DNA of 64,000 nucleotides, from positions 186,001-250,000 of the forward strand of contig JAYWIR010000044.1 in assembly GCA_036172245.1 (NCBI GenBank), written 5' to 3'. Below are positions 1,499 to 46,319 of this stretch, piece after piece. The notes below the pieces were generated by a model. The model was given only the letters and a program-made list of their open reading frames with translations, ran no database searches and was not told the DNA's origin. Source of the DNA: Raillietiella orientalis. Its lineage: Eukaryota. The position numbers and the translations under genes are program-made. Within the stretch, counting starts at the first letter, position 1. Each line of letters begins with the position of its first letter.

Positions 1499-1710
1499 CT
1501 TGTGTGAAAAACACGTATGCAGCCGGATCTGAAAACGCAGCTGCTGCCATAAATGCTGCTTAATAGTGGATCCAATTTGTCTCAGGAGCATCTGTTAGGA
1601 TCAAACACTGACTGCATCTTTGCCGATCTGCCTTGATGCAAACTACATTCATCTGGTGGTACTCAGTAGAGAAATAGGTGAGTAATGTAATATGAGGCAC
1701 GAGTAAGTTT

Positions 1711-2250
1711 CCATCCGGGTTCTCCGGGGCTTTTATTTAAACCTAAAATAAACATTTACAGAGTTTGTATGGTCGGACAGCTGTTTCAACCACGCCCTTT
1801 TTGTAAATACCCTGCCGTTTGAAGGGTTCGCAGACCGGTGAGGACCACCACGGCAGCAGAGGGGAGGGGCCAAACAAAAGAAAAGTAAACGAAATAAAAA
1901 TAAAACAATTTTAGGAGGGTACGGGAAGGGATCACAACCTGCTGAGGGAGGTCTTTTGCATCCTTTGGAGGATGCCGACAAGGTCTTCTTTTATGTAGAT
2001 GTCCATGTGGGGCCATCTGACCACTACCCGCAGAAAGAGAGCAGCGAAGTGGATGGCGTCCCTATCCTTTCTCCCTCCATTGACATCGCTCCACACCTCC
2101 ATGATTCCTCGAAGGCGGCAAAGTGCTGCAAGCGCTGAGGCTGGCTGCAGGGCGTCCCGCACAAAGAGCCATGAGTAAGTAGTAAGCAACACAGAAAATG
2201 GGCGTCAGCTACATTGACTTTGGAGCATCTGCTCAAAATACCCTCATGGC
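1711..2250 (-). mobile_element. Unidentified dispersed repeat family ('RDAIHFA' family), copy A
   Basis: The minus ORF 1932..2192 encodes LCRLRGIMEVWSDVNGGRKDRDAIHFAALFLRVVVRWPHMDIYIKEDLVGILQRMQK. It is followed by a T-rich tract, CCCCTCTGCTGCC..CCTCACCGGT, AATAAA and GCCCCGGAGAACCCGGATG, as in the copies at 38.7, 42.2 and 45.2 kb. Confidence 0.7.
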
Positions 2251-5200
2251 TGGACTTCTGCCTATTCGCTCAAGTTCAGAGGCAACCTTCCTCCCATCTT
2301 CAATTGCTGAAGTGTAGTGTGGGGAAGTGTAGCAAGCAAAAGATTTCTTGGGCACCTCCGTGAAGCATGCTGTCTTTGCTAAACGAGCTTTCCTGAGTAG
2401 AGCACGGGAAGGTCAGTCACGGGCAAGCAGTTCTCTTTCAGTCCGGTCGTGTGCCGTCTCGGCCCTTGGTAGGCGTTTGGTATCTCTGCTCGACCGTGAT
2501 GTGCCGGCTGAGATAATTCGGAACTTCAGCAATAAGGAAGGCAGCCTTTGAAAGGAGATAACAGGTTTTTATTATTCCATGTTTCCAACGGCAGCTGGAA
2601 ATTTCGTTTTTTAAGCTCTCTCATTATGTTCTTCAGAATGAAATCACACTCGCGAGTTGTTTACGAAAGAAGGGTTCCGGCACAGTTGTGGACGAAATGC
2701 AGCGAGGAGCGATTCGGAGACCTTAGGGGATCAGGATGAACTCACCAACCTCTTCTGGGATTTCCCTAGCCAGGGTGAAGGTTGAGGAAAGGTTCGGAAG
2801 AGGTCTGCAGCGACCTGAGTTGTAGCTGGAGAATGTGAAAGCTGGGTGTAGATGAGAAAGACGAATACAACCACCTAGTAGGGTCCCTTAACACCTCCTC
2901 CACATCTCATCTTCCTCTTCCTCCCTTCCTTCCTTCTTCCATCTCCTCATCGCATCATTGAGCGCATCAACAGTCATACTAGATGATCGTCCAATCTCGT
3001 CACAGTCATCACCAGCATCATCTCAGAATAACTGTGGACCGTCGAAGAGGAAGGAAAAGGAAGGACCTCATCCGGTAAGCTGAACGTGACCTCGCTCTGC
3101 TCTCAAGCTCTGAATGGGGGTATAGCTGTCGCACCCACGATAGCGAACCCACTTTGGCAAGCAGAGCAGACTCTGCAGACTATGAAATAAAGGTTGGGTC
3201 AGGGAGTGCCGCATGGGACGCTCATCGGATCGCGTGGAAGGCGTTGGTCGTCGCCACGGACAGCACGAGGTTGCCCAGAGTCTGCTCAGAAACAGGCGGT
3301 CCTGAAAACGGGTGACGCCTGTGTGTCGATCCAGCATCCAGCCTCCGGGACAGAAGCGCTTCCTGCCTCGGGGCGTTCCGTTTCGTCGGAGGTCGGCAGG
3401 TGGCTTTGGATGGCGCGCATAAGGGTCCAAGGGGCGGAATCACCTGCAGCCGCCCCAGTCAGTGCAATCCAGCGGTAGCAGCAGGTTACATAGAGAACGT
3501 TCTATGCGGAGAAGGGTTCCATGGGATGGTTCAGTGTATCAGAAGTCCGTGGCACTTGTGGAGCACCCCAAAACGGGAGCTCTCGGAAACGCCTGGAGCG
3601 CCTCCGTGTTGGTAAGAATCCACAAGATTGCGTGGATGGAATCGAGCTGAGGCTCTCACCGGCGGGCTCTGCAGAAGTTGCCTGTTTGTCTCACTTTCGG
3701 TCCAACAGCGCTGCGCCCGTCCGAAGTAGTTTGACAAATCCGGAAGCGCAGCGGAGCCATGGCAACGCTGGTCGCACTGCGAGATCAAGTCCTAAGGAAA
3801 ATCGGAATAGGCACTTGAGGACAGCCTGGAGGTCGGCCGTCTCCTGCTTGCGAAAGTTCGTGTACGAACCCGGGGGCGACAGCGCCACAGACGTGCTGCG
3901 GCGACTCTCCGCAAGAGGCGGAAGTTTCTCGCGGTGGCCGTGACGGTGGCGCCGTTGGCTTTCATCGGCGCCATTGTGGGGGTGCGCCACTTTGTTCACA
4001 GCGACGGGACGTCCATCCCGACACTATTCCACGGAAACTGCGGCGAACCTCGGTCCTGTCCGGACGAGGAAGTCTCCCCAGAGATCGCCTGCGCCTGCGC
4101 CGGTCACGAGGGGGAAAGAGCAAATCCACCCAACCTTCTATTTTCCTCCTTTATTTATTTATTACTTTTCTCGCGCTTCAGACTTTTCTTCCGTGACCTG
4201 CGTGTCGGTGGTCCTTCCCGCTGAACTTCGGGAAGCATAGGCTCCCAGTTTGTTTGCTTCTTTCATTGCAAAGGTCCGGGCGCGACCTGTCGAAAGGCGC
4301 CCCAGCTCTTCGGAGAGGCGTCGCGCGAAACCATTCCCAAAAGGGAAACTTCTGTTCCGAGGGCAACGACGATAGGATGATTACTGCAACCATCATAAAT
4401 AATTGATTATTAACAATTTGCAGCACAACAATGATTTCATACATAGGGCGAGCCTCCGTTCGTGACGAATTAAATTCCCATCGGAGCGGGGGTAATGGGG
4501 TAGCGGCTAAAGCAAGCTGTCCCTTGAAAACATTTCCTGCCCTTCAAGTGCCGGTGACGTTATTCCGAAGAGATGCGAGATCGCTGGTGCCCGGGCAGGG
4601 GTCGCGAAGGGGGAAGCGCTTTGACCCGAATGGTAAACACGCAATTATCTGCTGGTCTCGAGTGAGTTATGCCAACAGAAGGAATTTTGATTCCTCCTTC
4701 CTCATGATTTAGAATTGCTCCGGGAAACGAAAGGAAGTGACATAAATAATGCAAGAGGAGACGTGATGAAGACATTTGTTTGCCTCTCCACCGGAAACAG
4801 AGAACCTGGGATACAATCCGTGATCCCAAGAAGGCATTCAGTCAGATTGGCTGCCACGAGGGGGCGCGCGTTTCGCGTGCCGGGGTCCTCCCTCACTTCC
4901 CCACAGTGAGAGGCGGGGCTGACTGCTGGCGTGTTCAGGCTGCTGGAACCCGAACTTCTGGTGAAGAAGCGGCCGCTTTTGGCCACTGAAGACGTCCACA
5001 GACGAAAGCAAGTTGTTCCGGCCGCGATGGTCGAGGAGTTCTCGAGAGCGCGCAAAGGATTGTCTTCCTAATTGGATTTCCCTATTGCTCTGTCGGACCG
5101 CATCGTCTTTTCCCTCTGCACCAACAAGATCGGACAGCTGCCGCTCATGTTCCCCTTCAGTCCGCATCAACAGAACCGTGCTGCCGCCGCTCAAAAAGAG

Positions 5201-20904: not shown

Positions 20905-21002
20905 TAGGAGCTTGGCGCTAGTGATGCATCTCTAGACGGGAGTGCTGGAGAGGAGGCAGCATCGCGAAGTATCTGGTGCAGGCAGGAAGCAGGCGCTCCT
21001 GC

Positions 21003-21830: not shown

Positions 21831-21869
21831 AAAAAAAAAAAAACACACAGAGAGGCTTCACAGGAACCG

Positions 21870-21926
21870 ATATATATATATATACATGAATCTGTGCAAT
21901 CATATATATATGTATATATATATATA
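21870..21926. repeat. (TA)n microsatellite
   Basis: Two interrupted TA runs. Confidence 0.85.
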
Positions 21927-27591: not shown

Positions 27592-28263
27592 CGGAAAGAA
27601 AAACACTCGAGTTTATCTGCCGGATGCCAAGCATTCGCTCCAAGACAACGGAAGTCAGCTGCGTAAACCGAGAGACGGAAATGAAAGCAGGCGCTCAAGC
27701 GCGGAGTGACCAGGAGCGAAATGTCTTCCGAAGCGATCCAGAGGTTCCGGAAGTGGACACCCAGTGAGGTCGCTCGAAGCTTGAGGAAGTTCTGGAAGCT
27801 TTCTTGTTCCATTTCCTCCGCCGCGAGAGCGAGGAAAAGTCTACCACGGCCACCCCGCCCACAGAAGGAACTCCGACATGCTTACCGCGCTGCTAGAAAC
27901 CGCACCAATATCGCTCGCCCTACGACCCACAGCCAATATCGTCTGGAAGGTTGCATAATGTATAGTAGTCCCGGTCCCTAGAGCGAACCACAGCTTGCAT
28001 GCAAGCTTATACTTTCGCTACACTTACCCCTCTCTCTAGACAGATAGATAACCACAATAACAACCCACCAACCACTTCCCCGCCATCCATCCATGATCTT
28101 TCTCTACCGTTCCCACCCCGTTGTTCTTTCCTCAACCTGTCTTCTACACAACAAACTCACATCCACAATCCACAACAGCTATTCCTCTGAGGAGAAGGCG
28201 TAAAACGGGAATCCTCATCCATCGGCATTCCTCCAAGAAAAATAGTAACGAGCACATTGAAAT
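27592..28263. repeat. Two-block dispersed duplication, copy 2 (partner 16223-16735)
   Basis: ORF-track peptides 16337..16675 and 27706..27981 are nearly identical. The spacer 27972-28181 differs from copy 1. Confidence 0.92.
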
Positions 28264-29532
28264 TTGCAGCAGGCACGTCACACACAACCAGGAAGCTGCT
28301 GCATGCTTCGGGACTTTCTGGAGAAGGCAATCAAAGCTGAAAGCCTCGTTCCTCTTCTAGAAGGATCTGAAGAGAAACTTCCTGGTCCCATTCCGTGCTA
28401 GCGAATGCAGTCTGTTCCTTAGACCGCTGGGAAAGAGTAGCATATTTGCGGCTCAAGGATGGAGGGAAGTCGTTGCTAGGAACAGCCTCGCTAAAATGCT
28501 CGTGATGGATGCAAGCGAGCAGCCTGGCTCAGGAGTGCTGAAACTTTAATCTGAAGTTGATTTCCCGGGTTTACAAGAAGATTGGAGGCTCGCTGTTTGG
28601 TTTCGCTTTGCATGAATTACATGAATCTCTTGGACACACGTGGGCTCACGGAGCTTTCGAAAGGAAGTTGTCCCAAGTCTGAGCTGAATGCACCTCGGCA
28701 CATCTTCGGCTTCCTCCGAGTTTCAAAACTGCCAAAGCTGTGGTTTGCAGTAGTTTCCTACCTGGTACTGTGGCGTACAAGGTGGGAAACTGGGAAATCC
28801 GCTACCTGCCGATTGCCAGTTGTGACTTCTGTTCCTTGGAGACCCATGCCGTAGCGCCCTCGGGGCTCGTCGAAAAGACAGGCACACGTTCGCACGGATG
28901 ATCTTCGCTTCCCCACGCACGAAGTCATTCGCATTCAGAAACAACGCGGAGTCCTGAGTCACCGTCCGTGTCGACTTTGGAGGCGAGCCTGGAGGGACTT
29001 CGCCCCACTTGCCCGCGAGCAGTCGGTGTGAGGGATGCGCGCGACCGGCACGGGGCTGTTCCATCGTGCGGTCTTCCTCTCGGGCAAGAGCGAGACGCTC
29101 TTCAGAGCGAATCTTCCGCTGGTGCAATAGATCGAGATGAACGGCGTGCCGTTTCGGATCTCGGTTTGCGGGTTCCCGAGGATAATGATTCCTGACTCAC
29201 ACTCGCCAAAGTCCACCCTCCCTCACCATCCAGTTTCATTTCTCTGGAAGGATCCATGCGAACGCTCGATTCATTGCGAGCGAACGATTTAAAGGCAAAG
29301 AAGCTCAATCCATTCCATCTCTTCATTGTCTTTTTTTTAAAAAAACAAAAACAAAAACAGAACAAAGCAAAGTGGTTACTGGCGACTTCACGGGGCGATC
29401 ATTACTATGGGCACAGGATGGCGGATATCCTTCTTGTTTTTTTTCCCTTTTCTTCTTCTGCTTCTGTTTGTTTTTGGTTCGCTAAATAACTCAGAAACCG
29501 CTCGCCCCCTTGGGGAGGGGAGGGATCGGAAT

Positions 29533-29613
29533 CTCTTTAACACTGTCCACGCCACCCGAGGGTGCGTGTAACTCTTCCAGTTATAGGGATTCCGTAGGGA
29601 CCTGCCTATGAAT
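29533..29613 (+). repeat. Conserved ~80-nt non-coding motif, copy 1 (partner 44806-44888), candidate structured RNA
   Basis: CTCTTTAACACTGTCCACGCCA.CCG.GGGTGCG.GT.ACTCTTC...TAGGGA...CCGTAGGGACC..CCTATGAAT is shared by both sites. Confidence 0.75.
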
Positions 29614-31940
29614 CCGGAGGAAGGAGTTTGTTCCCCTTAAGCCTGGGAGGTAAACCCGGAAGAAGCCCTCGCCCTGGATGTCTGCGAAGGGAATCCGCAA
29701 GGGAACCGCTCTTTGCTTGTTTCTCTGAAGGAAACCCCGAAGGGAGCAGCGAGCTCATTACACCCCCACCCAACCGGAGGGCAACCCCGAAGGACCCCAG
29801 AGAGTCCAATTCCGATACCGGTCAGTCGCCGGTCGCATCCGGTTTCCGGCTTCCTCCAGTGCCGCATCGGAGCCTACAGGGCCAACCAGCGCCGTCCAGC
29901 GGAGAGTACTCGAAGTCCGCGACGCACCCCCCGTTTCTCCGAAGTCGATCTTTCCCCGGGTGGAATTCGAAACCCCGTAGCGCACGGAGACGGCAGCCAC
30001 GCAGCCGCCGAAGTGGGCATCTCTTTGGAACCCTCGACGGATGCAAAATACTTCTCGTGGATGGAGCTTTCCTCGTACTTGGAAGCGACTCCGTTCGTCT
30101 CAGGGCTGCAAGGTAGATGGCGTCGCGGAACGCGCACTTGCGGAAATGCCGGACAAAGGATGGATGCAGCATGGAGCCACTAGCAGGGGCAGCATTCGAT
30201 TCTCCTGAACGCGCGAAAGCGAATTTTTCCGGCATTCACGATTATGTCGCACGCTCGCCTGTGGCCCGTCTGGACCTCGGTCGAACTGGCTTTCGGGGAA
30301 GCTCGCACAGATTTCCTCCATCAGCTGTCTTAGCTGTTAGCACGTCGTGCTCCCGCCGACAACACGGTGTCACTTGGTGTGGTGTGACCTCTTCTTGAGG
30401 CAGAGGGAAAAACCAAAAAGGGCCGGGGCTGTTTCCATGCAACAGGTAGAGTTGTTCACTCGGAGCATGGGGTGACTGGCGCGTGCCCACAGACGACAAA
30501 AGCCGAGGGCTATGGAAGATGCTGCAGCTGCAAATTCACCGTTCTTCCGCGTGTTTACGCGCACGCATGATTATGGGGAATACGTGAGGATGGAGCGTGC
30601 GTGCACGTGCTCGCAACGTGTACCATGCAGCAATAATAATACAGTATTACAGCGTACGGTGAAAGGGTGCAACGATTTCGCTCGCTCTTCACCCAAAGGA
30701 TGCTTTCCTAAAAGAGATGTTCCGCTGTCCTCCATAATTAAGGAAGGGTAAAAGGAATTTCATTTGTTCCTGCGTGCGCGCGCGCACACACGCGTGTGTC
30801 TTTTGAACAAATCGTTTTCGTTCTGAAAAACCGAGTCAGAGTGGGGAAAGAGAACAGGGAACGAACGGTTCCGGTTCCAGCTTCCATGCGACCGGACGTG
30901 GCTCCATGGGCGCGCTGCGAGGACACACCGTGGTAGAGAACATTCCTAGAGCTTGCCGAGAGGCTCCACTCTTGCGTGCGCAATTACTAGTAATAGTAAT
31001 AACTGATAGAGTAATGACACGGAGGCCCACCACTCGAAGGGAGGGAGGGAGCCGCTCAAGGCGTCTTTCCACACCGGAAGACGAGACGTCCATAATACGA
31101 AAGTTCCGCATTCCGGGCACGCCGAGCCCATTTTCGGAATATCAATTATTGATCTCTGGTTGTACGGAATTCCGTACTTAGTTTGAATCTCAAAAACCCC
31201 CGGCTGAGCTCCGGTTTTTGCGAACAGATGCGGGAGATATAAAAACAGGAACCCAGGAAGCGATCACTGTCTCGCGTTTTTCCTCGGCTCGTCGCTGCCC
31301 ACTTAATTATTTAAAAATGACCCTGTGGGTCGGAGAATGGACGCTCTCCGAGCTGCAGGGGAGCCGAAAAGAAGAAAAAAAAAATCAATGGCTTCCTTGA
31401 TTTCTCGGTTACCTTCGCCACTTCAGGGAGCACGTTTTCCCGTAGCCCGCCCTTCTTCCTCGCCACGTGTCCCGACCGTGAATGTTGGGGACCGTCCCGG
31501 ATCCTGGTGCTCGCCCGCCCTCCTCCAGCACCGACCTCGGGGAGGGTGTGCGGCCTCGGTGCGCTGCAGGTGGGGGGCACTTGGCCACGGTTTTCGCCAT
31601 TTGGCGTCGTGGGCGCGCACGCTAACCCACGACGTGCTGCGTGCTCGCATGCATCCCGAACGTCGAAGACAGATCCCAGGGATGCGTGTTTTTCGGGACC
31701 CGAAGGAAAGGTGAAAATGATCCCTCCGAACCTCGTGCCAGTCGTCAACAGTTGCGATCTTCGGGAAAGCGTCCCAGGTAATTAACTCTTCGTCGAGTCA
31801 TTACTACGAGTGCTTCTCGTGTCTTTCGAATTCGCCTTTCGGCTCAAAGCAGTCGGCTCCGTGGAAACGGAAACGAAATCGATTCATTGGTTCATTGCGA
31901 CGGGAGCGGACGCTCCGAGTCCAAATGAGATTCCCTAATG

Positions 31941-32860
31941 GAAGACGGTCCCTTATGTCAAGTTACGTGATCCAAGCCTGGCTTCCTGCCACAGAATCCG
32001 AGGGATTACCGTTGGAACCGATCTCGGTCGCCTCCCGAGCGTGAGGTCGGTTTCATCCACCGCCGCTCAGACCAGACCGTCCGTGGATATCAGCTTAGCG
32101 GGAAGGATACGGCCGTCCAGGGCAATCTAACAAGGATAAATCACGCCATTCAGAAGATTCCATTCTCAACACCGAACAGGAGAGAAGAATCGAAAGGCGG
32201 ATGGTGAAACTTCGGCGTCGGACACGGTGAGCAACGGATTTCCTGGATCGTCTTGCTAGGGAGAGGCCAAATCCCTCCTGGAGCTGCTACCGAGGCTTGG
32301 AAAATCGAAACGCTCCTGGGAGGCGCGCAATAGCCGGGCAGACAGGGGGTCCTCTAGAGTGACAGGGATTCGAAACCACCTTCCCGAATTTTCCTCGAGA
32401 AACGAGAGACCAGCACAGCTGCGAGTTGTCTGTGGACGCGGATACTGAAGGATGCGCGATGCGTCCCGAATTGGACGGGACGGAGAACCAGGACACGCAT
32501 CCTTCCTTCTACGGGCGTCAAAAGTTGTCCCCCGCGTTCGAACGCATGATCGAAGAGACGCGAGCGCACGGGCTCGTCTGCGCGGTGGACAAAGGCAACG
32601 GCGAAGGGCACTTCCTGCTTCCTGCCGGCTTCCTGCGATTCCTGGAAGTGCATAGGTCGGGGTGCCCTGCAATCTGAAACGGAACGGTTGGATTCGCAAG
32701 GATGACTCCTGGATTTGCGGAAGACCTGCAGGATGAAAACTCTTACTTTCTGTGGACCACCTGCAGAGAACGGAGCATTTCAGGAAGCGCCCGGAATCCC
32801 GGATTGGAGACACTGAAGTGGCTGGCTGGTAGAGGAAACTCCACCGGTTCGGAGGAAGAG
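31941..32860. repeat. Copy 2 of the ~0.9-1 kb duplication (partner 512-1498)
   Basis: Near-identical sequence; both copies carry the TGA after ...SGC(L/P)AI. Confidence 0.92.
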
Positions 32861-35409: not shown

Positions 35410-36861
35410 TCAGAATCCGCTGTCCAGGGTGCACCTCGACGTCACGGACTGCCTTCGAAATCCCAAGGCGCACCCCGTGAGGGCCAAGGCAGCTGTACAC
35501 ATGCCCCTTTGGTTGAGCACCAGCCCTCCTTCGCAAAGTCTAGAAGAACTTCTACTTCCGGAAGTCTTAGCGACTCTTCCAGGACGGACGCTTTCCCTAC
35601 ATTTCCAGTTGAAGCTCCTCTTGGCTCCCGGGATGCAAGGCAGCAGCATGCTGGCTTCCAGCAGGGGTCCCTGCTTCCTCGTGGGTCTCCCTCTCGCTGG
35701 AACTCTTCCGGGACGACCCACCGGCCCTGCCGGGGAATCTGGTCCGGGAGAAGCCTCGTTGCCGCTGCCGGGGTGCTTCCTGCGGGATACGAGCGGGACG
35801 CACTCCGGCTCCCGGGTGTCGATATTGAAGTTCAGGACGCCTCCCGCGGGGCAACCGCCGCTCCCGGAGACGCGCAGACAGCTTCCTCGGAAGAACATCT
35901 CGGACTCGGGGCACGTCTGGCGGGCGCAACCCGGCGCACCTTCCTCCCCGAGCAGCCAAAGCTCTCCCTCCGGGCAGGATCCCCTCGCAAACAGCTGGCG
36001 ACAGTTTCCCCCGGGGTCCTGGAGGTACCCCTCCAGGCACGCGCACACGACTTCGCCCGCCGCAGTCACGTACGCCCTCTGGGCGGGCTTCGGGCACACG
36101 GCTTCGTCGGTGGGGTCGAAGCAGCTCTGCCAAACCGGGACGAAGATCCTGCCTTGGGGGCAGGGGTTCCTCTCGCAGCTCATGGAGCGCGAATCGGGCT
36201 CCATGAGTATCCAACCGTTCTCCCCGCAGGGTTCGGTCAGCCGGAAGCAGGAACTGGATTCCCTGGAGAAGATCTCCCCCCTCCCGCAGCCGTCGGGAGG
36301 GTCATCCGGCCCCCGGAAAGGGAGCGTCACGTCTGGTATGGAGGGCACGTAGAGCTGGGACAGCACGCTTCCGACAAGAGAGACCACTCCCAGGGATGGC
36401 AGGAACGTCGCGCCAGACGCCACGGATGGCGTGAGGGAGGGCTGGGCGCTGTCCATGTAGCTGAGCATGCACGATATGGCGGTGGCGGCCATCATCATGC
36501 CGGCGTTCATTGCGGCGGTCCACATGAGTTGGCCCGGTGCGGGTCGCAGGGGACTAATCAGGGTCTGCAGCTGCGGTCGGTGGTGCTTCTGGCGCTCGCT
36601 GTTGTTCTTCATGCCGCAGTCGCACACGCAGAAGCAGTTGTAGTTGCACTCGCACCAATCGCTGCAGAAGCAATCGCACCACTGGTCGCAGTCGCACTCC
36701 CAGTACTCGTCGACTTCGTTTCCGACCAGGATGTCCACGACGGTCTGATCCAGCGTGCTCGGTCTCATGCTCTGCAACATCCCCTGCATCACGTTGGACA
36801 TGGTCATCAGGCCGGACATCGTTGACAGCCCCATCAGAGAGGCGCACACGGAACCCGACAT
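35410..36861 (-). CDS. Cysteine-rich DUF4789-like protein (483 aa) with Met-rich and CxC-rich N-terminus
   Basis: Intact 483-aa ORF containing CACLEGYLQDPGGNCRQLFARGSCPEGELWLL...GCARQTCP and SCERNPCPQG, the Cys pattern of arthropod DUF4789 proteins. An additional upstream exon cannot be excluded. Confidence 0.82.
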   Translation of the reverse strand: MSGSVCASLMGLSTMSGLMTMSNVMQGMLQSMRPSTLDQTVVDILVGNEVDEYWECDCDQWCDCFCSDWCECNYNCFCVCDCGMKNNSERQKHHRPQLQTLISPLRPAPGQLMWTAAMNAGMMMAATAISCMLSYMDSAQPSLTPSVASGATFLPSLGVVSLVGSVLSQLYVPSIPDVTLPFRGPDDPPDGCGRGEIFSRESSSCFRLTEPCGENGWILMEPDSRSMSCERNPCPQGRIFVPVWQSCFDPTDEAVCPKPAQRAYVTAAGEVVCACLEGYLQDPGGNCRQLFARGSCPEGELWLLGEEGAPGCARQTCPESEMFFRGSCLRVSGSGGCPAGGVLNFNIDTREPECVPLVSRRKHPGSGNEASPGPDSPAGPVGRPGRVPARGRPTRKQGPLLEASMLLPCIPGAKRSFNWKCRESVRPGRVAKTSGSRSSSRLCEGGLVLNQRGMCTAALALTGCALGFRRQSVTSRCTLDSGF

Positions 36862-37625
36862 CCGCTCTTACGGCGTTTCACCGCGGGCCCGGGAGGGAGG
36901 CTGGGGGAGGAAAGAGAGGGAGGAAGAGAGAGAGATTAAAAAAAAAAAAAAAAGGGAAAGCCACATCTGACCCGAACCCGTCACTGGGGGAACGCGGGTT
37001 CCCGCATGACCGTCCGAGTGGGCACCCGGAGGCGCACGCAACCTCACCGCTCGAAGACCAAAAGGAGACTGGCAGCGCAGCCGCATCTCCTCGGGGAGGA
37101 GAGAGGAGAACGTGCCTGCGTTTCCAGGGGTCTCGACTGACGGCGCTCGTGCAGGTGTCGCAATCAGACTTTTCTTTTCACCCAGAATGCTCCGAGGCGT
37201 CGATGTCCGGTCTCATTGTTCCGGTGGCCGATCCTCGGTTCAGCGCGTCATCCGATTTTCGCCCGGAAAAAAATCTGCCTAGGAGATCTGGGCTCTTCTA
37301 GGAGGGCTGAATCCGGCGCGGTGCCTGCGGAGCAGAATGATTAGGGGATGCATGACCGAAGGATGTGCCTGCAGTGCCTAATGCAACTAGGAAGATACTC
37401 TACTGGACCCAACTTCCTCTTCGCCCAGCAGCTGCCACAAGACCCCCCGGTCGGAAAGGAACCCACGCGTGACCGCACTGACAGGCATAGGGGCGGTAGG
37501 AGAACACGGGAGGGGAAACGCGCCGGCGTTGTTGCTGTCGTCGGGGGAACGCGTGGGTGACCCGGCGTCTGCCTGCCTGGGATGAGAGCAGCTCCAAAGT
37601 CCGGAGACACGAAACCAGGAGCGAT

Positions 37626-38044
37626 GGCACTCGAGTTCGTCAAGACGGCACCCCCGCCTCAAGGAGACGATGGCCCGTCGCCTTCCCCGAACCGAGATGC
37701 GGATGCTGGTCTTGGAAGCATCTCCCCCTCCCCCCCTCTCTACATCGTGAGATGAAAAATCCGCCTCGTTCAGTCCTTCCTCGCGCGGCACCTCGCCCCG
37801 CGTTGTCCGGACGCGACGCCCGCCCCGTTCCGCCTGGCTGGGGTGATCGTATCTCCCCGAGCTCACGAGAGCCGCCACACCAGCGCAGCCACGCCATCCC
37901 GGCCGGGAATGCCGCATTCAGGCATCATCCGGGTCGCCTGCACAGACTCCTTCTCCACCGCGGCCCGCGACGCTCGACTTTATGCACTTGATCGTTGGCA
38001 TCTGCGCGTTTGGACCCGACTAGACACACTCGCGGTCGTGCCAG
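37626..38044 (+). repeat. Left arm of a 419-bp near-perfect inverted repeat
   Basis: Reverse complement of 39570-39988. Only one substitution was noticed (AAGGAGACG vs AAGGGGACG), and ORF-track peptides are duplicated on opposite strands. Confidence 0.95.
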
Positions 38045-38720
38045 CGGGAGCAATGAACACAATTAAAAACACACAAGGAACGAATTCGGGGGAGCAGTTC
38101 AAAACACTGAGCACCCGGGGAGCTCTCTTCAGATCGATATTTGGCTGGGCAGACACGTTCACACCCTGGTGCTCCAGAGAGACAGTTGAACCGTTCCATC
38201 CGACGTCGCCTTCCCGTGAGAGAACGCGGTAGCAGTGTCGAAAGAGGCACGACGAAGGAAAGAGGTCAGGTCTCTTTCCTTCGTCGCTTCCAGAAGAGCC
38301 CTGACCTCGGAGAGGACGCAATTGGCAGGACCGTGGGACCCGACCAGCGAAGGGAAATGCGCTCGGAGAATTTCGGATCGCTCTCACGCAGGCGAGAGAT
38401 GTGGAGAGGATGATGGTGGCGCACGTCCCAAGGACACTCCCTGGGTCACCTGGTGTCAGCCAGCCTTCGGTCGGATAACTCGACAGTGTTACCGTTAAAG
38501 GATTTCCTTGCACCTTTGTCATATATAACAAAAGATGGCTTATTTTCACATAGGCAGTAACCTATCCAGCACTTCCGCGCACGTTCCTGGAACATTGGAA
38601 GTTCGGACAAACTTCTTCCTTTCTCATGTGCTCCACCCCTTAGTTCCCACAGTGATTCATCGTCCACCGGATCTCAAGATTCGAGGGACCCTACCTGTTG
38701 CGTCGCGGCCGCTTTCGATG

Positions 38721-39300
38721 CCACCCGGGTGCTCTGAGGCGTTTATTAAGCTAAAAATAAAGATTTAAAAAGGGTGTGATTGAACCAGTGGTCCAGCCAC
38801 ATCCGTTACACCTGGATCCTTCCAGGGTAGCGGTTCGCCGACCGATGAGGTTTGCCGCGGCAGCAGAGGGGTGGGGGAAAACAAGAAGAAACAGAGAAAC
38901 AAGAATAAAAATGAATAAACAAATTTGAGTGGTGATGGTGCAGGAGGGGATCACTGCGCTCCTCTGCATCCTTTGCAGGAAGCCTGCAAGCTCTTGCTGT
39001 ATAGAGTTGTCCAGGTAGGTCCATCTCGTTGCCATCCTTATGAAGTGAACGGCGAAGTGGATGGCATCCCTCTCGCAGTGCCCTCCACTTGCGTCGCTCC
39101 AGGCAACGACGATCCCGTGAAGAAAGCAGAGAGCTGTTAGCGAGGCTGCCGGCCGAAGCGCGTTGCGTAGGAGGAGGGGTTTCAAGGAGTCCCTGGAGTT
39201 GCCGCCGGGGGCTCGTAGGGTCGTGTCAAAGCGTTCCCAGGGGGACGGCTGCTTTCCAGAGGTGAAGAGCCGACCCTCTTCATGTGCTCTCCTTTTGCCA
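38721..39300 (-). mobile_element. 'RDAIHFA' family, copy B (longest open frame)
   Basis: ORF 38751..39422 contains SPWERFDTTLR...ALCFLHGIVVAWSDASGGHCERDAIHFAVHFIRMATRWTYLDNSIQQELAGFLQRMQR. It is followed by a T-rich tract, CCCCTCTGCTGCC, AATAAA and CGCCTCAGAGCACCCGGGTG. Confidence 0.72.
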
Positions 39301-39569
39301 AGTGCACTCAGGGGTACCTGAATTCCAAGAAGACCACCTTCCCTGCGTCCTGGGACACCGAACCGCTTTGCGTACAGTTCTGAGGGATTTTGGCTGATTG
39401 CAGACCAGCAGTTCCCTGACACAGCTCCTGGCCACGAACAGGTAGGAGCAAAAGACGCTGGAAATTCTTCCTCTCCCCAGACAGGAGCTGTAGAGGGTGA
39501 GTCGACGGACGCTATAGGAAGGGTAGAGGAGTGGGACTTCCTGGTGAACTCTTGGCATTCTCTCAGACT

Positions 39570-39988
39570 CTGGCACGACCGCGAGTGTGTCTAGTCGGGT
39601 CCAAACGCGCAGATGCCAACGATCAAGTGCATAAAGTCGAGCGTCGCGGGCCGCGGTGGAGAAGGAGTCTGTGCAGGCGACCCGGATGATGCCTGAATGC
39701 GGCATTCCCGGCCGGGATGGCGTGGCTGCGCTGGTGTGGCGGCTCTCGTGAGCTCGGGGAGATACGATCACCCCAGCCAGGCGGAACGGGGCGGGCGTCG
39801 CGTCCGGACAACGCGGGGCGAGGTGCCGCGCGAGGAAGGACTGAACGAGGCGGATTTTTCATCTCACGATGTAGAGAGGGGGGGAGGGGGAGATGCTTCC
39901 AAGACCAGCATCCGCATCTCGGTTCGGGGAAGGCGACGGGCCATCGTCCCCTTGAGGCGGGGGTGCCGTCTTGACGAACTCGAGTGCC
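39570..39988 (-). repeat. Right arm of the 419-bp inverted repeat
   Basis: See left arm. Confidence 0.95.
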
Positions 39989-40029
39989 TGGCGGTTGCAG
40001 GGCACCGCTCGAAATGTCGGACTCGCTGG

Positions 40030-40110
40030 CTGCGCAGGGGAGGTTTCGAACCCGCTGCCTTTTGTGTGATAGGAGTGCAGGCCCGGTCATCCGGGCGTTT
40101 GGACGGTGCA
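40030..40110 (-). pseudogene. Possible tRNA-derived (Val-like) fragment or SINE head
   Basis: The minus strand reads TCACACAAAAGGCAGCGGGTTCGAAACC, a B-box preceded by a CAC anticodon-like context. No complete cloverleaf is visible. Confidence 0.3.
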
Positions 40111-40779
40111 CGCCGTGGGCAGAGACATCAGGCGGTGTCCGGTGAGAGCGAAACCGGGTGCGAACAAAGAGAAGGAGAAGAAAAATGGAGCGAGGTGAGG
40201 AGTTCGCTTTTGCCGGAGGGTCGCTGTGCAGGACCTGCGCTGCGAGGTTCGCCGCGCGCCTCGTTTCCGGGAGCGGATGCACTGCCCACTCTCCCTAGAG
40301 TGCTCCGGGACCGAATTCTGCCACCCGGATTTTCCATGAGATCGCGGACGCCGTCCTTCGCTCTTTCGCATTGGTGAAGCGTGTGCGAGGCAGCGAGAGG
40401 TGGTCCATACTGCACAGTCGCCTTGAACGCTCATGAGCAGCGCGAGAGTCAAGTGAAGTGACCGCATGGGAAGACGTGAGTAACCCACAAACCTGAATAC
40501 TCTCCTTCCGGTGTTCCTTCGCATCTGGAAATCAGCGGGAGCCTCGAAAGCGAGTGAAGATAGCTCCGCTGCGAGAGGTCGAGGCAATTACGGCACGAGC
40601 GCGGAAGTTTTTCAACAGGTCACGCCCGGGGGCGTTCATTTAGTGAAAAACGGACCAGCTGGGAACACGCTGCCGGAAACAGAGGACGTTTAGTTCCCAA
40701 ATGAGCCAGTCTGAAGGGGGGCTAAAAAAAAACAAAAAAAAAATCAGTAAATCTGGACAAATGGGGCAAGGGTCTTTGA

Positions 40780-41150
40780 GTTCGCTCCGTATACAGCGGG
40801 ATCAATGCACAAAAACCGGGAAAGCTGTGGAGCGAAAATGAGAGAGGAGAATAAGAGGAAAAATAATTAAAATAGGGGAAGCTAGGGACAAAGGTCGCCG
40901 GTTTCCTTCGTTCCTTCCTTTTTAAATTGGCGCTGGATGCCGGCGATCTTCACCTTGTCTTCCTCTTGCAGGTGAGGCGGCCTTGCAACCTTCCTCATGT
41001 AGGTCGCTGCCATCCCGATGACCCCCCTTTCGTCGTCTCCGACCCACGGCGGGCCGTAACGGTGGCGTGGATGCGGCCAGCCTCCGCCACAGTTCCTGGA
41101 GGGCACCGCAGTCCAAAAGCAGATGCGGAGGGGGTGACCCCAGGAACCTG
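40780..41150 (-). mobile_element. 'RDAIHFA' family, strongly diverged copy C
   Basis: ORF 40882..41445 ends GDDERGVIGMAATYMRKVARPPHLQEEDKVKIAGIQRQFKKE, which aligns without gaps to the family peptide. A T-rich tract follows. Confidence 0.5.
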
Positions 41151-42199
41151 CACCACCTGAAAAACAGTTCGGGGCTGCAACCCCTGCGGGGACGCGGTGC
41201 CGGTGCTCCTTGTTGCACCTGAATCCCCAGTGCAGAGAGAGCAGCACAGGCTGCTTCCAGAAGAGCGGGAACGCAGAAGCGTCCAGGCAGCGAGGTGGGA
41301 CCACAAGTTCTTCCGGAGCGACAATCAGGAGTTGACCCCACCAATGGAGTCCAGCGTACGCGGAGTGGCAGCACCCACCAGCACACGCGTCTTCCAGCCG
41401 CCAAAGGGTTCCGTCCTTCCCGCGATGGTGAAGGAAAACTCCCACCTCGCCGGTCGGCAGCTGTCTTCGCTTGCCCTCAAGGCAAACAGCGCTGCTGCAA
41501 GGGGTGTGTGGCGGCCAGAGTCGACCACTTTGCCGTGTCCGGCCTTTGTCCGTGCATCACCACTTCCGGAGGTCGTGGTGGGAAATGCCTCAACATCCTC
41601 CGGGCGCATTCCCTGAAGTACAGTCCGGGACCCAGCAGCCTCCTGCCGCGGAAGCAGGAAGTGACGCGAGCGCGCGCGCGGAAGCACCTGCTGCGAGACT
41701 AGCGTCCCCACTTCCCGGAAGGACGAAACTCTCCGCAGCGGAAGCGAATCCTCTCGAGAAAGCGGGCGTGGCTGGGGAGGTGCGTGTGCCACCGATGGAA
41801 GAGAACCTTCCCTCCCTGAGGGAGCAAATGGGCAGCCGTCTTGCGGATAGATGGGTGGACTCCACGGAAATCTCCGGAAAGAGAAGAGGACTGGGCGAGT
41901 GGGAGACGGTCCAGCTCATCGGCACTGCGACCCCGATTGCTCGACCTCGTGGACTTTTGCGCTGGGGCGTGCTATTGGGTATTACTGAGGAAGACCTGAA
42001 GTGGCACCCGGTGCTCCTAAACACCCGTATCCTCCTCTTTAAGTGGCAGGAGTTGGCGTTGCTGCTGCTGCACTGGGACCTCCCGTTCAATGCCTGCCAG
42101 CAACACTGGACACGGATGTGTGTGTGTGTGTGTGTGGACCCCAACTGTGGGCAGAAGCAGGGAGCGGGAATGCCTCCCGCACCTGCTAGTGGACTGCGT

Positions 42200-42600
42200 T
42201 GCCCTCTGGCCCCTCTGAGAACGCTTTGTGGAGGCCCTATGAACCTCCAGGGGCAACTCCGGCGGCAGAGGTGTCACATCCACTTCGCCGTCCGCCGAAC
42301 CCCCAGGGGAGGGCAACAAGGTGGCTCCAGCCGGACAACAACATCCAGCAAGAGCTTTGCCGCTATTTCCCAAAGGATGCGGAGGAACACCCCCAGCACA
42401 CAGTGAGATCCCTTCCCGCACCCTCTCAAAATTGCTTTAATTCTATTTTTGTTTGACCCTTCCCCTCTGCTGCCTTGGTGGACCTCACCGGTAACACGGC
42501 AGGTTAGGTGTGAAAAGGACGGGGCTGGACCACTGATCCAGCCACAGAAATCGTAAATGTTTATTTATTTTATAAACAAACGCCCCGGAGTACCCGGGTG
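42200..42600 (+). mobile_element. 'RDAIHFA' family, frameshifted copy D
   Basis: IHFAV, WLQPDNNIQQEL and QRMRR lie in different frames. They are followed by a T-rich tract, CCCCTCTGCTGCCTTGGTGGACCTCACCGGT, GGCTGGACCACTG and AAACGCCCCGGAGTACCCGGGTG. Confidence 0.7.
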
Positions 42601-44805
42601 AAAATCGATCCACGTGACTCGCGCGCGCGCCGGTCGGAGCACCACCGCGCCGCAGGCGCGCTCGAAGAAGCAGAGACCCTGACACATACCACTGCCGATC
42701 GAGATGGGATCGGTTAGGGTTATGCATAAAAATAAGGGACGTCCCTATGAATAAACTATGGCCGCGGATAGCCGGAAATCAGCATACCCGTGGGAACTCG
42801 CAGTGGACGAACCCCGGAATTTATTTCCTCTCTGTAGGTCCTCTGCGTTGCGAGAGCAGCAGCGAGCTACTGGCTGGGGAAAAAAAGGGAGATGAAGATG
42901 CAACCGCTTCGGAAGCACAGGGGTCGAACGCGTGACTCCGGGACGCCATCCCGTGGTTCAGCGAGTCATTGCCTCTCGTCCCTCGCCCAGTTCACGAAGG
43001 CAAGTCGATAGAACCATCTGCTGGTTTCCTCGCTCTTTGTCATCTCAAAGTTACCGTCTCAGAGTCAGGGCAGCAGAATTTCCTCCGTGCTTCAGGGCAT
43101 GGACTGACTGTCAACCCCTCCCCCCCCCCTTTCACCGAGAACGGCGTCTTCAGCAACCGCCATTAAGCCCGATCTCACCCCCTGAGGACGGTTGCTTCAA
43201 TGTTTAATGAAGTCGGGATTGCCGAGGAGTCCTCTCCGCTCGTGCGGAAGTCGAGTCGTTCCTCGCATCTCGGGGGGGGGGACTGCCTGCTGCCACCTTG
43301 CGACCGACTCGAAAAGAGAGTCGTCACGTGGGGAAGGGGAAGGAGAGCACGGCGTGAAACTTGCCTCTCAAAAGACTGCGAGCGTGCGTTCCTCGTGAGC
43401 AGGAGACCTTCCCTGAGGGCCTGGTCAGCTGGCCAGCGCTCGCCCTGCGAAATGATGGACTGCCACGGAAGCGACCCGCGCGAACGGCCGATCTAAATAC
43501 CAAGACGTCTTCGCGGAACGGCTTCCCTTGGCACCCACCTCCGGAGCCGCCACCGCCCAGCTCGCCCGGGTGCTCGCGAGGGACCGCGGTGCGACCTCTC
43601 TCTCTTCGCCAGGAACAGACAGCTGGACGTCGGCCTCGCTCCCGGTAATTTTCGAGCGAGAGGAGCACGCGACAGGCTCGTCGCTGGCAACGGCGGCCGA
43701 ACAAAACGATCGGTTTTTGTTTTTCGGTGTTATTTCGGGAAGAAAGAAGAAGGAGGAAAAATTTTTTCCTCGCGTGGAAAAGAAACATTTCTGGAAGGAA
43801 AACGGCGAGGTTGTGATTAACCTAATGGGATGATAGCAGCTAGCAAAAGTTCCTCCGGGAGTTCGAAAAATCGTTAGGGACACAAGAATCACCGACTGCT
43901 GGCCCCGGACGGTGTGCGCCTCCGGAATCTCCGCCGCGGAAATCCCGTTGCGGGGCAACGAAACGGTCCTGCCGCGCGTGGGAGGGCGCACCGCGAGGCC
44001 TCCTCGGTGGGCAGCGCGGAACGCGGGAGCCCTCCCCCCCCACCCACCCCATCCGAGGCATCGCCGGAAGAGGCGCGAACTGAGGACGGGGGGGGGCGGG
44101 CGAGGTTTCGCGCGCGCGCGCGGGCAGAGCCGCCGTCCCTGCCAGCGCGCCGCGCACGCGCGGGAGCACGCGAACGCCCGCCGGGCGCCGCGTGAAATCC
44201 GCCGGAATCTCAGAGCCTGGCGCCGCGGGTGGAGGCATCTCGAAGCCGCGGTCCCCCCTGCGCGACCGTGACGACGGTGCCAGGGAACCGTGGACAGCCC
44301 TGTCCGCTGGCGTAACAGCAGCCGCCTGAGCGCTGTACCCCGCGGTCGTGGTCGCTGGGAACGGAATCGGGGCACAGACGGGTGCAGAAGAGGGAGAATG
44401 CAGCAGCAGCTCTTCGCGGAATTTCGCTCGCCGTCCAAACTGCTGTTTCCCGGGAGCAGATGCGGGGAAGTGCATTTCCCTGTGGAAGGCGTTGCACGTC
44501 GATCCGCCAGCGGCTTGGAACGAAAATCCTGCACGGCCCACGATTCGGGACGGCGAAGCTGAAGGTGCCTCCATTATCCGGCCGTCGCCTATTTCCTGCT
44601 CACAGGCAGCACGGGACCAGCGTGCGCTGAAGGATGCTGCGGCTCCGATGACCTCTGCACATCTTTCCTGCGAAGTTTTCATCTTTCCTACTGTGCTTTT
44701 CTTCCGTCGATTCCATTCCACTTCCGTCTTCTTCTTTTTTTTTTTTCGAGGAGGAGCTCCTTGAGTGCTGAAGAATCGTTCGCCTCCTTAACGACACTCA
44801 CGAAG

Positions 44806-44888
44806 CTCTTTAACACTGTCCACGCCATCCGCGGGTGCGCGTTACTCTTCAGGCTAGGGAGCAATCCCGTAGGGACCACCCTATGAAT
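44806..44888 (+). repeat. Conserved ~80-nt non-coding motif, copy 2 (partner 29533-29613)
   Basis: See copy 1. This copy includes a GGGA-GCAA-TCCC GNRA tetraloop hairpin. Confidence 0.75.
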
Positions 44889-45189
44889 AGGGAGGTGAAG
44901 TGCATAATCAATAGTGGGGAAAGATCATTTAAGTACGTGGACAACTCGGGAGCTGGCGGACGCTGCCACCCTGAGTGCCCCTCCAAGAGGACTGCTAGCG
45001 CCTCCGGAGGAGGTGCAATGGCCTCCAGCGTGCTGGAACAGTCCTACTCTCCCCCTAAAGTAGCAGGAGTCGGTGACCCTTCTGTCGCATGGGGGCCTAC
45101 CGTGCAACACCCACCGACACCATTGAACCCCAACTGCAGCAGGTGAGGAGAAAGAGAGTCCTGAACCTGCTCATGGACTATGTTACCCT

Positions 45190-45706
45190 CCGCCCATTGT
45201 GGGAACTTTTGCCGCGTCCCTGAGGATTCTCGAGGACAGCCCCAGAGACGTTTTCAATTCTCGAGGACTGTGTGACGTCCTCGCGCTGTGCCGCCCACGT
45301 GGCAGGATCGTGGCTGCATGGAGCAACGCCAGAGGAGGCCAGAACGACAGGGACGCCATCTATTTTGCCGTCCTCTTCGTGAGGATAACGTCAAGATCTG
45401 GCCCCATCTGGGGATCGTAAAGTAGGAACTTGCCGGCATCCTGGAAAGGATGCAGAGGACGCCCTCCAGCACCCGGTGATCACTTCCCGAACCTTCCCAA
45501 TTTTTTCGTACATATTTTTTTGGTTTTATTTTTCTTTTTGCTTATCCCCTCCTCACCCCCTCTGCTGCCAGGGCGAGCATCGCCGGCCTACGCGCCATTT
45601 CTGGGCAGGTTCCCATGGTTACATCTGTAACGTGGCAAGACCAAGCGTCCTGTCACTGAGCTGTATGTTTGTTTTTATAGAAATAAACTTCCCGGCGCCA
45701 CCGGGC
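45190..45706 (+). mobile_element. 'RDAIHFA' family, frameshifted copy E
   Basis: ALCRPRGRIVAAWSNARGGQNDRDAIYFAVLFVR is followed in another frame by ELAGILERMQR, then a T-rich tract, CCCCTCTGCTGCC, AATAAA (45682) and CCCGGCGCCACCGGG. Confidence 0.72.
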
Positions 45707-46319
45707 GTCAACCCTATGAATCCAGGAAGATTCCGGAAACAGCAGTCCGAAGAAAACCGAGCCCTTGATTCCTGGAAGAATTCCAGAGGGTCAACTTCGA
45801 ATCCCGGCCAGTCGACGGTGCCAAACAGCCACCAGCCAAACGGCGTCATCTTGCGGGGGGACTCGAAACCCAAGACGAGCGAGATTCGAACGTGCAACGC
45901 TTGGTGTCACGAGCGGAGCCTCCCAGCCGGCCGCCAACGCGGACCATCTGCCCGATTTCGATGAGGAATCGAAAACGGACCAACTGGAGAAGACATCCAT
46001 CTTAATCACTTGCAGCTAAAAGAGACCCAGGGAGCACCACTGTGTCCTTTCCATCGGGTTTTTACGAATTGACTGAGTTGTGAAGGAATACGATCGTCTG
46101 TAGGAATACGATTTCCAATAATTTTGGAAATAATTGTATGTGATACAGCATCATATTGCAACTGTACGCTTGGATTCTCAAGATGTGGGTTTAGAGTGGG
46201 CTCAACTCACAAATTTTAAATTAACAGTTACCTGCAAATCTTTGTCCAAAGAAGGACCACAATGAAGTTGATAACATCCATACAGAAAATTCGTGTAAAG
46301 CTGAAGTTGGAAACGCTTT

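Follow-up and report, generated by a model that had tools for sequence, protein, structure and literature searches.

Penelope-like elements insert by target-primed reverse transcription and leave 5'-truncated copies without poly(A), often as inverted pairs, and their ORF ends in a GIY-YIG endonuclease. HAL1-type elements are LINE derivatives that keep one ORF and depend on a reverse transcriptase (RT) in trans. A terminal microsatellite is typical of CR1/L2 elements, and target duplications measure 4-6 bp for LTR elements and are absent for Helitrons. The described systems closest to the family reported here are the stringent-type LINEs (the L2/CR1-type UnaL2 and ZfL2, or R2), for which we follow the definition, and the distinction between stringent and relaxed LINEs, given in PMC4176376.

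We found the family in a window of 64,000 nucleotides of the Raillietiella orientalis assembly (contig JAYWIR010000044.1). Like the stringent-type LINEs, it has a defined 3' terminus without poly(A), a conserved 3' untranslated tail that bears hairpins, 5'-truncated copies with flanking duplications of variable length, and an ORF that reaches to a few hundred nt from the end. It differs from them in that the copies, which represent ~0.9 kb of the 3' part, show no RT or endonuclease, in the presence of an AATAAA-like hexamer close to the end, and in a C-terminal peptide that matches no Pfam family; no clade was assigned. Compared with CR1/L2 elements, the family is without the terminal microsatellite.

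Copies of the family in the window

The five copies of the family found in the window (A to E) are real and not due to chance, and none of them is intact. They are the following:

1708..2310 (-), copy A, 5'-truncated, placed by tblastn, the nhmmer extent, the stop codon and the 3' end at alignment column 1125
38717..39245 (-), copy B, 529 nt, 5'-truncated, with ORF core and 3' tail
40609..41482 (-), copy C, the most decayed, with N-part, core and a recognisable 3' terminus, head-to-head with D
41814..42605 (+), copy D, with the N-part in a single open frame and the stop at 42404
44889..45712 (+), copy E, 824 nt, with N-part, core and 3' tail, the stop at 45477 and a target-site duplication on both sides

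In a tblastn search of the window with the 279-aa frame of copy B, copy A was recovered at E=4.5e-23 (46.7% over 105 aa), copy E at 6e-11 and copy D at 1.6e-6; copy C was not significant (E=0.84). With blastn, copy B matched A (68.5% over 343 nt), E (69.9% over 276 nt) and D (69.2% over 169 nt). Copy C was recovered at 40834-41040(-) with E=1.7e-6 by nhmmer, using a DNA profile made from A, B, D and E with C left out. It aligns with D (41482-41099 of C against 41814-42206 of D, 232/369 aligned positions, score 24, with shuffles reaching 18 at most), and its 3' terminus (40642-40609) matches that of D at 25/32 positions.

The original prediction had listed five copies and a possible sixth, of which tblastn, blastn and the profile bear out the five. 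The possible sixth, at 3900-4220, stays at the level of shuffled controls: its local alignment with four copies, on both strands, scored 10-15 against 13-18 for the controls, a further profile scan (E<=10) of the window had no match there, and its sole overlap with the copies is a T-rich stretch. The predicted coordinates are limited to the cores; C, D and E extend 350-400 nt further 5' and C about 170 nt further 3', to ~40609.

The copies carry different lesions. The ORF core of A occupies 1932-2204 (90 codons, TGA stop at 1932-1934), and the 5' limit of this copy is uncertain. In B, the ends of which are defined by its flanking duplication, a 13-nt deletion right behind the QRMQ codons (a gap in the alignment) takes out the normal stop and leaves that frame without one. 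The core of D has a deletion of ~125 nt, and the core of E is frameshifted near 45397. A longer extent of E, out to 44802, was considered and rejected, as 44802-44895 is part of another repeat (repeat 'R2', see below).

Four of the copies are clustered within 7 kb, and C and D stand head-to-head as predicted (41482..40609(-) and 41814..42605(+)). We rejected an inverted segmental duplication as the origin of this pair: there is no homology beyond both 3' ends or in the 330 nt between the 5' ends (flank alignment score 13, shuffle mean 12.6).

The conserved peptide

The retained part of the ORF amounts to at most ~240 codons and consists of an N-part followed by a core of ~100 aa that ends in ..QRMQ, seven residues and a TGA stop. 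This stop is at the identical position in A, D and E, and a relative from a metagenome (P0001, see below) ends there too. The core was recognised as coding because of an excess of third-position changes. At ~72-80 sites per codon position, the differences at positions 1/2/3 were 23/23/40 for A-B, 20/13/38 for B-E and 22/22/37 for A-E, the excess being significant in all three pairs (p=0.0017, <0.0001 and 0.0045, respectively), and codon periodicity was absent from the untranslated tail that served as control. The peptide was thus formerly under purifying selection, in line with the original prediction. The calculation of dN/dS that had been proposed as a check gave about 0.30 for A-B in the ORF frame (Nei-Gojobori, dN 0.318, dS 1.047), compared to about 1.5 and 0.7 in the remaining two frames. 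The related claim that the peptide was conserved despite much DNA divergence has to be qualified, since overall DNA identity is about equal in the coding core (A-B 132/197, B-E 123/173) and the non-coding tail (A-B 149/228, A-D 162/214).

The N-part is confined to C, D and E (D-E 37.5% over 80 aa, E=1.2e-7; D-C E=1.8e-6), and a search for it in A and B gave no match. Its third-position excess is weak (D-E p=0.17, D-C p=0.32, E-C p=0.036). The core peptide of ~100 aa is a real, once-selected coding sequence without a Pfam family.

Searches for domains and relatives

The window contains 236 frames of at least 100 aa, and the 150 longest gave two Pfam matches (DUF4789 and, sub-threshold, an ML domain), both unrelated to the family. 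No match at the curated cut-off was obtained for 98 shorter frames between 37 and 47 kb, and the family copies themselves had no Pfam match at E up to 10. None of these 150 and 98 window frames contained an RT or endonuclease; the copies reach only ~0.9 kb from the 3' end. Rfam searches, which covered the window at the gathering score and 38.5-46 kb at E up to 5, found neither a hammerhead ribozyme nor any other family. One match to the peptide was found among the PDB sequences (E=0.7) and no usable match in the ESM Atlas. AlphaFold2 modelled the peptide (from a 4-row alignment) as four helices with a pLDDT of 63.7, a weak model for which Foldseek found no PDB structure at E<=0.001 (best 1.9) and which is too poor to be informative. 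The original prediction had not recognised the peptide as a known domain, and this agrees with the outcome for Pfam, PDB and fold (the last from the weak model).

Against 1.84 billion representative proteins the peptide gave four matches at E<=0.001, of which only P0001 is credible, an 87-aa metagenome ORF with 56% identity (E=3.7e-16) that forms a single-member cluster and derives from one 2870-bp JGI metagenome contig. The other three were rejected, being long repetitive proteins matched over 30-50 residues only. There was no long protein bearing the family peptide among these representatives. In word-indexed searches the core alignment retrieved P0001 alone among proteins of near length and nothing among longer ones, and the N-part alignment likewise retrieved nothing among longer proteins. 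Locus scans of metagenome contigs, prokaryote genome contigs and viral contigs yielded no confirmed match.

The 3' tail and the ends of the copies

Behind the ORF follows an untranslated tail of ~225 nt, delimited by alignments:

38717..38946 (-), 3' untranslated tail of copy B
1708..1931, the same tail in copy A
42407..42605, the same tail in copy D
45480..45712, the same tail in copy E

The order within the tail is a T-rich stretch, a 13-nt block that is invariant in 4/4 copies, two hairpins, the AATAAA-like hexamer (~24 nt before the end of the element) and a short GC hairpin. RNAalifold predicted 35 pairs, three of them with compensatory changes, and conserved hairpins, from four sequences only. 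All five copies finish in a similar ..AAAC/..ATC terminus, beyond which the flanks are unrelated. Poly(A) is absent in all five; a terminal A run of at most 3-5 is present in A, C and D and none in B and E.

The 3' ends of A, B, D and E coincide within two alignment columns (1124-1126), and C has the same 3'-terminal motif. The 5' ends vary: column 132 for the limit of C/D homology, 167 for E, about 484 for A and 547 for B. The first two, which are independent end points, are just 35 nt apart. At several of these ends we found target-site duplications, and for copy E also an empty site:

44880..44888 (+), 5' target-site duplication of copy E, 9/9 identical to its partner at 45713-45721
39246..39256 (-), 5' candidate target-site duplication of copy B, whose partner at 38706-38716 immediately follows the conserved 3' terminus
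29529..29833 (+), uninterrupted paralogue of repeat 'R2', which contains the target 9-mer once (29605-29613) and acts as empty site

The duplication of E, which can be extended to 12/13 over 44876-44888, is equalled in 2/500 shuffles (p=0.004); the 9-mer itself occurs four times in the window against 0.21 expected. For B, the two sides are identical at 10/11 positions (4/500 shuffles, p=0.008). Copy A has a weak possible duplication at 2415-2427 (10/13, p=0.028). A terminus-anchored search found none for C or D. In D, 41659-41673 and 42612-42626 agree at 12/15 positions (p about 0.01, unanchored), and this copy may start at 41674, provided this weak duplication is real. Both flanks of E align with the uninterrupted repeat, the left over 29529-29620 against 44802-44895 (76/92) and the right over 29789-29833 against 45775-45819 (34/45, score 23, shuffle maximum 13-15). 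Judged by these alignments, copy E interrupts repeat 'R2', which is unrelated to the family.

The ends of B and E were searched for terminal inverted repeats and had none, and neither LTR features nor a tRNA head were found; the window contains no tRNA. A perfect inverted repeat surrounds copy B. We considered it as a foldback transposon and rejected this, as the outer ends of the repeat show no target duplication.

Interpretation

The original prediction suggested that the peptide belongs to the terminal ORF of a mobile element, and this is supported by copy E, with its target-site duplication and the empty site in a paralogue. We consider it probable that a single non-LTR (LINE-like) retroposon family gave rise to the five copies as old insertions that have since decayed; none of them reaches an RT domain. 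Two features expected of LINEs were found, namely a common 3' end with variable 5' truncation and target-site duplications of variable length (in E and B, weakly in A) at ends without terminal repeats, as was the conserved structured tail that replaces poly(A) in stringent-type LINEs (four sequences for the hairpins). The absence of inverted repeats, tRNA and poly(A) agrees with a LINE that has a specific 3' tail. No RT, endonuclease or other element-type domain was found in the window (the 150 longest and 98 shorter frames), so the family is a putative LINE.

The family would have spread by target-primed reverse transcription that began at a defined 3' end and often halted early, and such a defined start with early stops would result in a common 3' terminus and 5' ends of differing length. 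Master copies probably evolved under protein-level selection, and the inserted copies would afterwards have decayed neutrally. We infer that the family ORF belongs, as the C-terminal part, to a longer, RT-bearing ORF2 and that the 3' tail may be a recognition element, of the type that a sequence-specific ('stringent-type') RT would recognise.

The closeness (35 nt) of the 5' end of E to the C/D homology limit is better explained by a full-length unit of ~0.9 kb than by random truncation of a long element, and this favours an alternative that we regard as possible but unlikely, in which the family would be either a retroposon of no more than ~0.9-1.0 kb or a small gene that was retroposed, its sole ORF encoding an all-helical protein of ~250 aa without known relatives, with RT supplied in trans by a partner LINE. 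C and D would then be complete or almost complete, whereas E would lack 35 nt and A and B would be truncated. An in-frame ATG of D at 41795, 19 nt upstream of the C/D limit, agrees with such a unit, as do the hexamer near the end and the lack of a longer copy or RT in the window and of a long protein with the peptide among the representatives. However, the coincidence involves two independent 5' end points only and is weak (p roughly a few percent, by estimate), an ATG is missing near the 5' end of C, and E does not extend into that region, the frame of D is already open from 41432, a long way 5' of the ATG, and the poly(A) that is expected of a retrogene from a poly(A)-dependent LINE, according to PMC4176376, is absent. 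Processed pseudogenes and retrogenes made by L1-type (relaxed) LINEs share 5' truncation, flanking duplications and a polyadenylation-type hexamer with the family, but the family does not match them, as 5/5 copies are without poly(A); the copies go back to lineages whose divergence took place under selection (dS about 1) and not to one parent gene. A unit of only ~0.9-1 kb would resemble HAL1 in being a non-autonomous retroposon that bears an ORF, although HAL1 keeps ORF1 of L1 and a poly(A) end, whereas in the family an ORF for a protein without a known family adjoins a 3' tail without poly(A). It is doubtful, to a similar degree, that such a protein-coding non-autonomous retroposon of ~0.9-1.0 kb has a product (e.g. 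an RNA-binding or chaperone-type factor) that helps it to use the machinery of a partner LINE; in a weaker version, the peptide may be the C-terminal domain of a LINE lineage absent so far from protein databases.

The original prediction had also offered a birth-and-death gene family. In a host family of this kind, the copies would be the terminal exon and 3' UTR of a multi-exon gene, duplicated at the DNA level, with only pseudogenes in the window. The coding signature with its conserved stop, the polyadenylation-like hexamer, the four copies within 7 kb and, in our own reading, pyrimidine-rich stretches with an AG behind them at the points where C, D and E become homologous would agree with this. 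Nevertheless, duplication of DNA does not yield 3' ends that coincide within two columns in four copies, nor duplications that flank single copies together with an empty site in a paralogue; the inverted copies C and D have non-homologous flanks, the pyrimidine-AG of E belongs to repeat 'R2' and not to the family, and an intact copy is lacking from the window. This explanation therefore fits poorly and is very unlikely. The 3' part of a Penelope-like element, which is similarly improbable, would share the reading as target-primed insertion, the duplications of variable length, the absence of poly(A) and inverted neighbours such as the head-to-head C and D, but neither a C-terminal GIY-YIG endonuclease (no Pfam match in any copy, E up to 10) nor a hammerhead ribozyme motif (no Rfam match) was found, and C and D, with their unrelated flanks, are as diverged from each other as other pairs (63% for C against D). 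That the copies are fragments of an element of another class (LTR element or solo LTR, DNA transposon, Helitron) is hardly credible. The short GC hairpin near the 3' end does resemble a Helitron end, and the unit is of discrete size, but duplications of 9-13 bp fit neither LTR elements nor Helitrons. Furthermore, E starts with AG.. and finishes with ..AC instead of TG..CA, the stretch after the stop is T-rich and has no purine tract as for an LTR, no CTRR is present at the terminus as for a Helitron, and neither E nor B has its two ends paired by an inverted repeat as for a DNA transposon or MITE. A SINE was rejected in view of the absence of a tRNA in the window and of an Rfam match, and because the unit bears a selected ORF.

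In its behaviour the family resembles an ordinary non-LTR retroposon with 5' truncation, and its description as the best candidate for a new system in the window was therefore overstated; only the peptide lacks a known family. The window contains a retroposon family that is as yet unclassified, together with a second repeat that was the target of its insertion. This has no bearing on any long-standing open question, and its value lies mainly in annotation: the family is to be masked and named, and not annotated as genes. With a full-length copy, either a new C-terminal domain would be added to a LINE clade or a small retroposon that bears an ORF would come to light.

Five copies with a common 3' end

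The family is represented in the window by five copies, of which four lie inside 7 kb and two (C and D) are head-to-head. One copy (E) is embedded in another repeat (R2).

Copies of the family and the repeat interrupted by one of them
1708-2310 (-), copy A
38717-39245 (-), copy B
40609-41482 (-), copy C
41814-42605 (+), copy D
44889-45712 (+), copy E
29529-29833; 44802-44888 + 45713-45819; 42735-42752, R2, a repeat unrelated to the family, with E inserted in one copy

A tblastn search of the window with the 279-aa frame of copy B found A (E=4.5e-23), E (6e-11) and D (1.6e-6), with C below significance (E=0.84); at the DNA level B is 68-70% identical to A, E or D (blastn). A DNA profile of the other four copies, run against the window, recovered C independently (E=1.7e-6) and added no copy beyond it. 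Five of the six copies in the original prediction are thus real, and the sixth, at 3900-4220, was ruled out by a second profile scan and by direct alignments. The extents first assigned to the copies cover only the cores: translated self-comparison and pairwise alignment showed that C, D and E reach 350-400 nt farther 5'. The stretch 41814-42206 of D can be aligned with 41482-41099 of C at 232/369 identical positions (score 24 vs a shuffle maximum of 18), and the peptide of the upstream ORF piece of D (N-part, 41795-42109) has matches in E (37.5% over 80 aa, E=1.2e-7) and in C (E=1.8e-6), with no match in A, B or elsewhere in the window.

With all five copies aligned, A, B, D and E have their 3' ends within columns 1124-1126; on the 5' side the C/D homology stops at column 132, and E begins at column 167, A at ~484 and B at 547. 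The 3' terminus of C lies at ~40609 and is 25/32 identical to that of D. All five copies have a similar ..AAAC/..ATC terminus, beyond which the flanks are unrelated, and none has a poly(A) tail. The untranslated tail instead contains, in order, a T-rich stretch, a 13-nt block invariant in 4/4 copies, two hairpins and a short GC hairpin, with an AATAAA-like hexamer ~24 nt before the end (canonical in A, B and E, with one change in C and D). Compensatory changes were found in 3 of the 35 predicted pairs (four sequences), which is suggestive of a conserved tail structure but not proof of it.

Insertion marks and surroundings

Copy E is flanked by a direct repeat (9/9 identical, 44880-44888 / 45713-45721, extendable to 12/13), the 3' copy of which begins at the first base beyond the conserved terminus, a match found in 2/500 shuffles. 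R2 was found on both sides of E, 44802-44895 matching 29529-29620 (76/92 identical) and 45775-45819 matching 29789-29833 (34/45, score 23 vs 13-15), and the uninterrupted R2 paralogue has the target 9-mer once, at 29605-29613. The E locus and the paralogue at 29529-29833 are therefore a filled-site/empty-site pair. Copy B has a 10/11 repeat (39246-39256 / 38706-38716) that starts directly past the terminus (p=0.008), and A a weak candidate duplication (10/13, p=0.028). No flanking duplication of C or D appeared in the terminus-anchored search; an unanchored 12/15 match at D begins several bases off the terminus and is not relied on. Terminal inverted repeats are absent from B and E. At least one copy of the family has thus been mobile, and the earlier reading of the family as a mobile element is borne out by the duplication and empty site of E and by the duplication at B.

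C and D are 63% identical, no more than other pairs, and their flanks lack homology. The cluster appears to be a repeat-rich stretch that gathered insertions and not a structured locus; a chance estimate from five copies would be fragile. D has an 18-nt piece of R2 130 nt downstream, which matches at 16/18 positions and includes the 9-mer target. Copy B lies inside the 1525-nt spacer of a 419-nt inverted repeat (37626-38044 / 39570-39988), reported as 100% complementary but with one mismatch by eye. No target duplication is visible at its outer ends. This inverted repeat may have arisen by inverted duplication very recently, or it may be an artefact of assembly.

The conserved peptide as a protein C-terminus

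DNA identity is alike in the core, which encodes the conserved ~100-aa peptide (A-B 132/197), and the tail (A-B 149/228, A-D 162/214), so conservation alone is uninformative on coding. In the peptide frame, however, differences at codon positions 1/2/3 (~72-80 sites each) number 23/23/40 for A-B, 20/13/38 for B-E and 22/22/37 for A-E, an excess at third over first and second positions with p=0.0017, <0.0001 and 0.0045, respectively. The signal is weaker in pairs with the deleted copy D (p=0.06, 0.11 and 0.04), and the N-part gives only a trend (p=0.17, 0.32 and 0.036). The tail, taken as a control in the same register, lacked periodicity in every pair (p=0.05-0.54) and had no third-position excess. 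For A-B, the Nei-Gojobori method gave dN 0.318 and dS 1.047 over 65 codons (ratio ~0.30), against ratios of ~1.5 and 0.7 in the two other frames, both of which contain stops. In A, D and E the frame closes with a TGA at one shared position, eleven codons past the start of the (Q/E)RM(Q/R) motif; in B the stop was removed by a 13-nt deletion.

Only one related protein was found among 1.84 billion representative proteins, P0001, an 87-aa ORF (56% identity) on a 2870-bp metagenome contig, and this sole outside relative terminates at the same place as the family frame. Codon-position skew, dN/dS, the shared stop and the end of P0001 together show that the core formed the C-terminal end of a protein on which selection acted while the A, B and E lineages diverged. 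The copies themselves have decayed, with stops, frameshifts in D and E and a ~125-nt deletion in D, and none is intact.

Pfam gave no match to any copy at E up to 10, PDB sequences nothing for the peptide and the ESM Atlas no usable match. The AlphaFold model is all-helical and weak (pLDDT 63.7) and found no fold match, and further profile and locus searches added no relatives. The searched databases contain few eukaryotic repeats; the missing matches are thus no sign that the family is absent from repeat libraries such as Repbase or Dfam.

Other features of the window

G+C ranges from 46 to 63% in 2-kb steps. The open frames are broken up, and searches of the window for tRNAs and Rfam families came back empty. 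Among the 150 longest of the 236 frames of at least 100 aa, just two have Pfam matches. The first, a 485-aa open frame (35413-36867, -), contains DUF4789 (E=3.4e-8, above cut-off), a mainly arthropod family, which suggests that the window is eukaryotic DNA, probably of an invertebrate. This frame, which also has an unusual Cys/Asp/Trp-rich stretch towards the N-terminus, probably corresponds to a genuine host-gene exon. The second is a sub-threshold ML domain (53811-54197, +). Frames 53850-54179 (+) and 55644-55973 (-), in opposite orientation with 48% identity over 110 aa and one with the sub-threshold ML (NPC2-like) match, seem to be two ML-domain genes that have diverged from each other.

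Several other repeats were observed. An 850-nt direct duplicate (649-1497 and 32007-32856, 98.9% identity, 31.4 kb apart), accompanied by a 46-nt exact match (512-557 / 31941-31986), is a recent segmental duplication or young repeat. Collinear direct repeats 11.4 kb apart (16223-16522 / 27592-27891, 99%; 16654-16735 / 28182-28263, 94%) seem to belong to a single young repeat or duplication. The ~85-nt units in 20711-24820, found in both orientations, often paired 96-101 nt apart and each with a TGACGTCA-like palindrome (61-86% identity), may represent either a MITE-like repeat or recurring promoter modules. The two copies of an 84-nt direct repeat (11797-11880 and 14052-14135, 96% identity) are 2.3 kb apart.

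Nature of the element

The copies combine a fixed 3' end with ragged 5' ends, flanking duplications of variable length (9-13 bp), no terminal repeats and an ORF running to ~225 nt from the end. This combination is typical of target-primed reverse transcription, as in non-LTR retrotransposons, and the copies would have inserted in this way. PMC4176376 describes stringent-type LINEs, which require a specific 3' tail structure, and the relaxed, poly(A)-dependent L1, also the source of processed pseudogenes. The absence of poly(A) therefore speaks against retrogenes made by a LINE of the relaxed type and in favour of an element whose own tail is recognised. Judging from these sequence features, the copies are fairly likely to be 5'-truncated, dead members of a putative LINE-like retroposon of the stringent type, with the peptide at the C-terminal end of its last ORF. 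None of the copies extends as far as a reverse transcriptase or endonuclease, and domain searches of the frames found neither elsewhere in the window.

The most interesting of the rival readings is a short unit of ~0.9-1 kb, an ORF-bearing retroposon without its own reverse transcriptase, to which two independent 5' end points 35 nt apart and an ATG just upstream in D would point; we consider it unlikely. That the peptide is the terminal exon of a gene family is compatible with the coding signal but at odds with the coincident ends, the duplications and the empty site, and is improbable. A Penelope-like element, to which searches for GIY-YIG and ribozyme gave no support, is slightly more improbable, and an LTR, DNA-transposon or Helitron element, each of which conflicts with the copies in a defining feature, is the most doubtful of all.

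The original observation was therefore largely right and its reading as a mobile element right, but the proposed 'new system' is overstated: with the LINE-like retroposon as the preferred reading, the element is of an ordinary kind, and its protein tail is unclassified.
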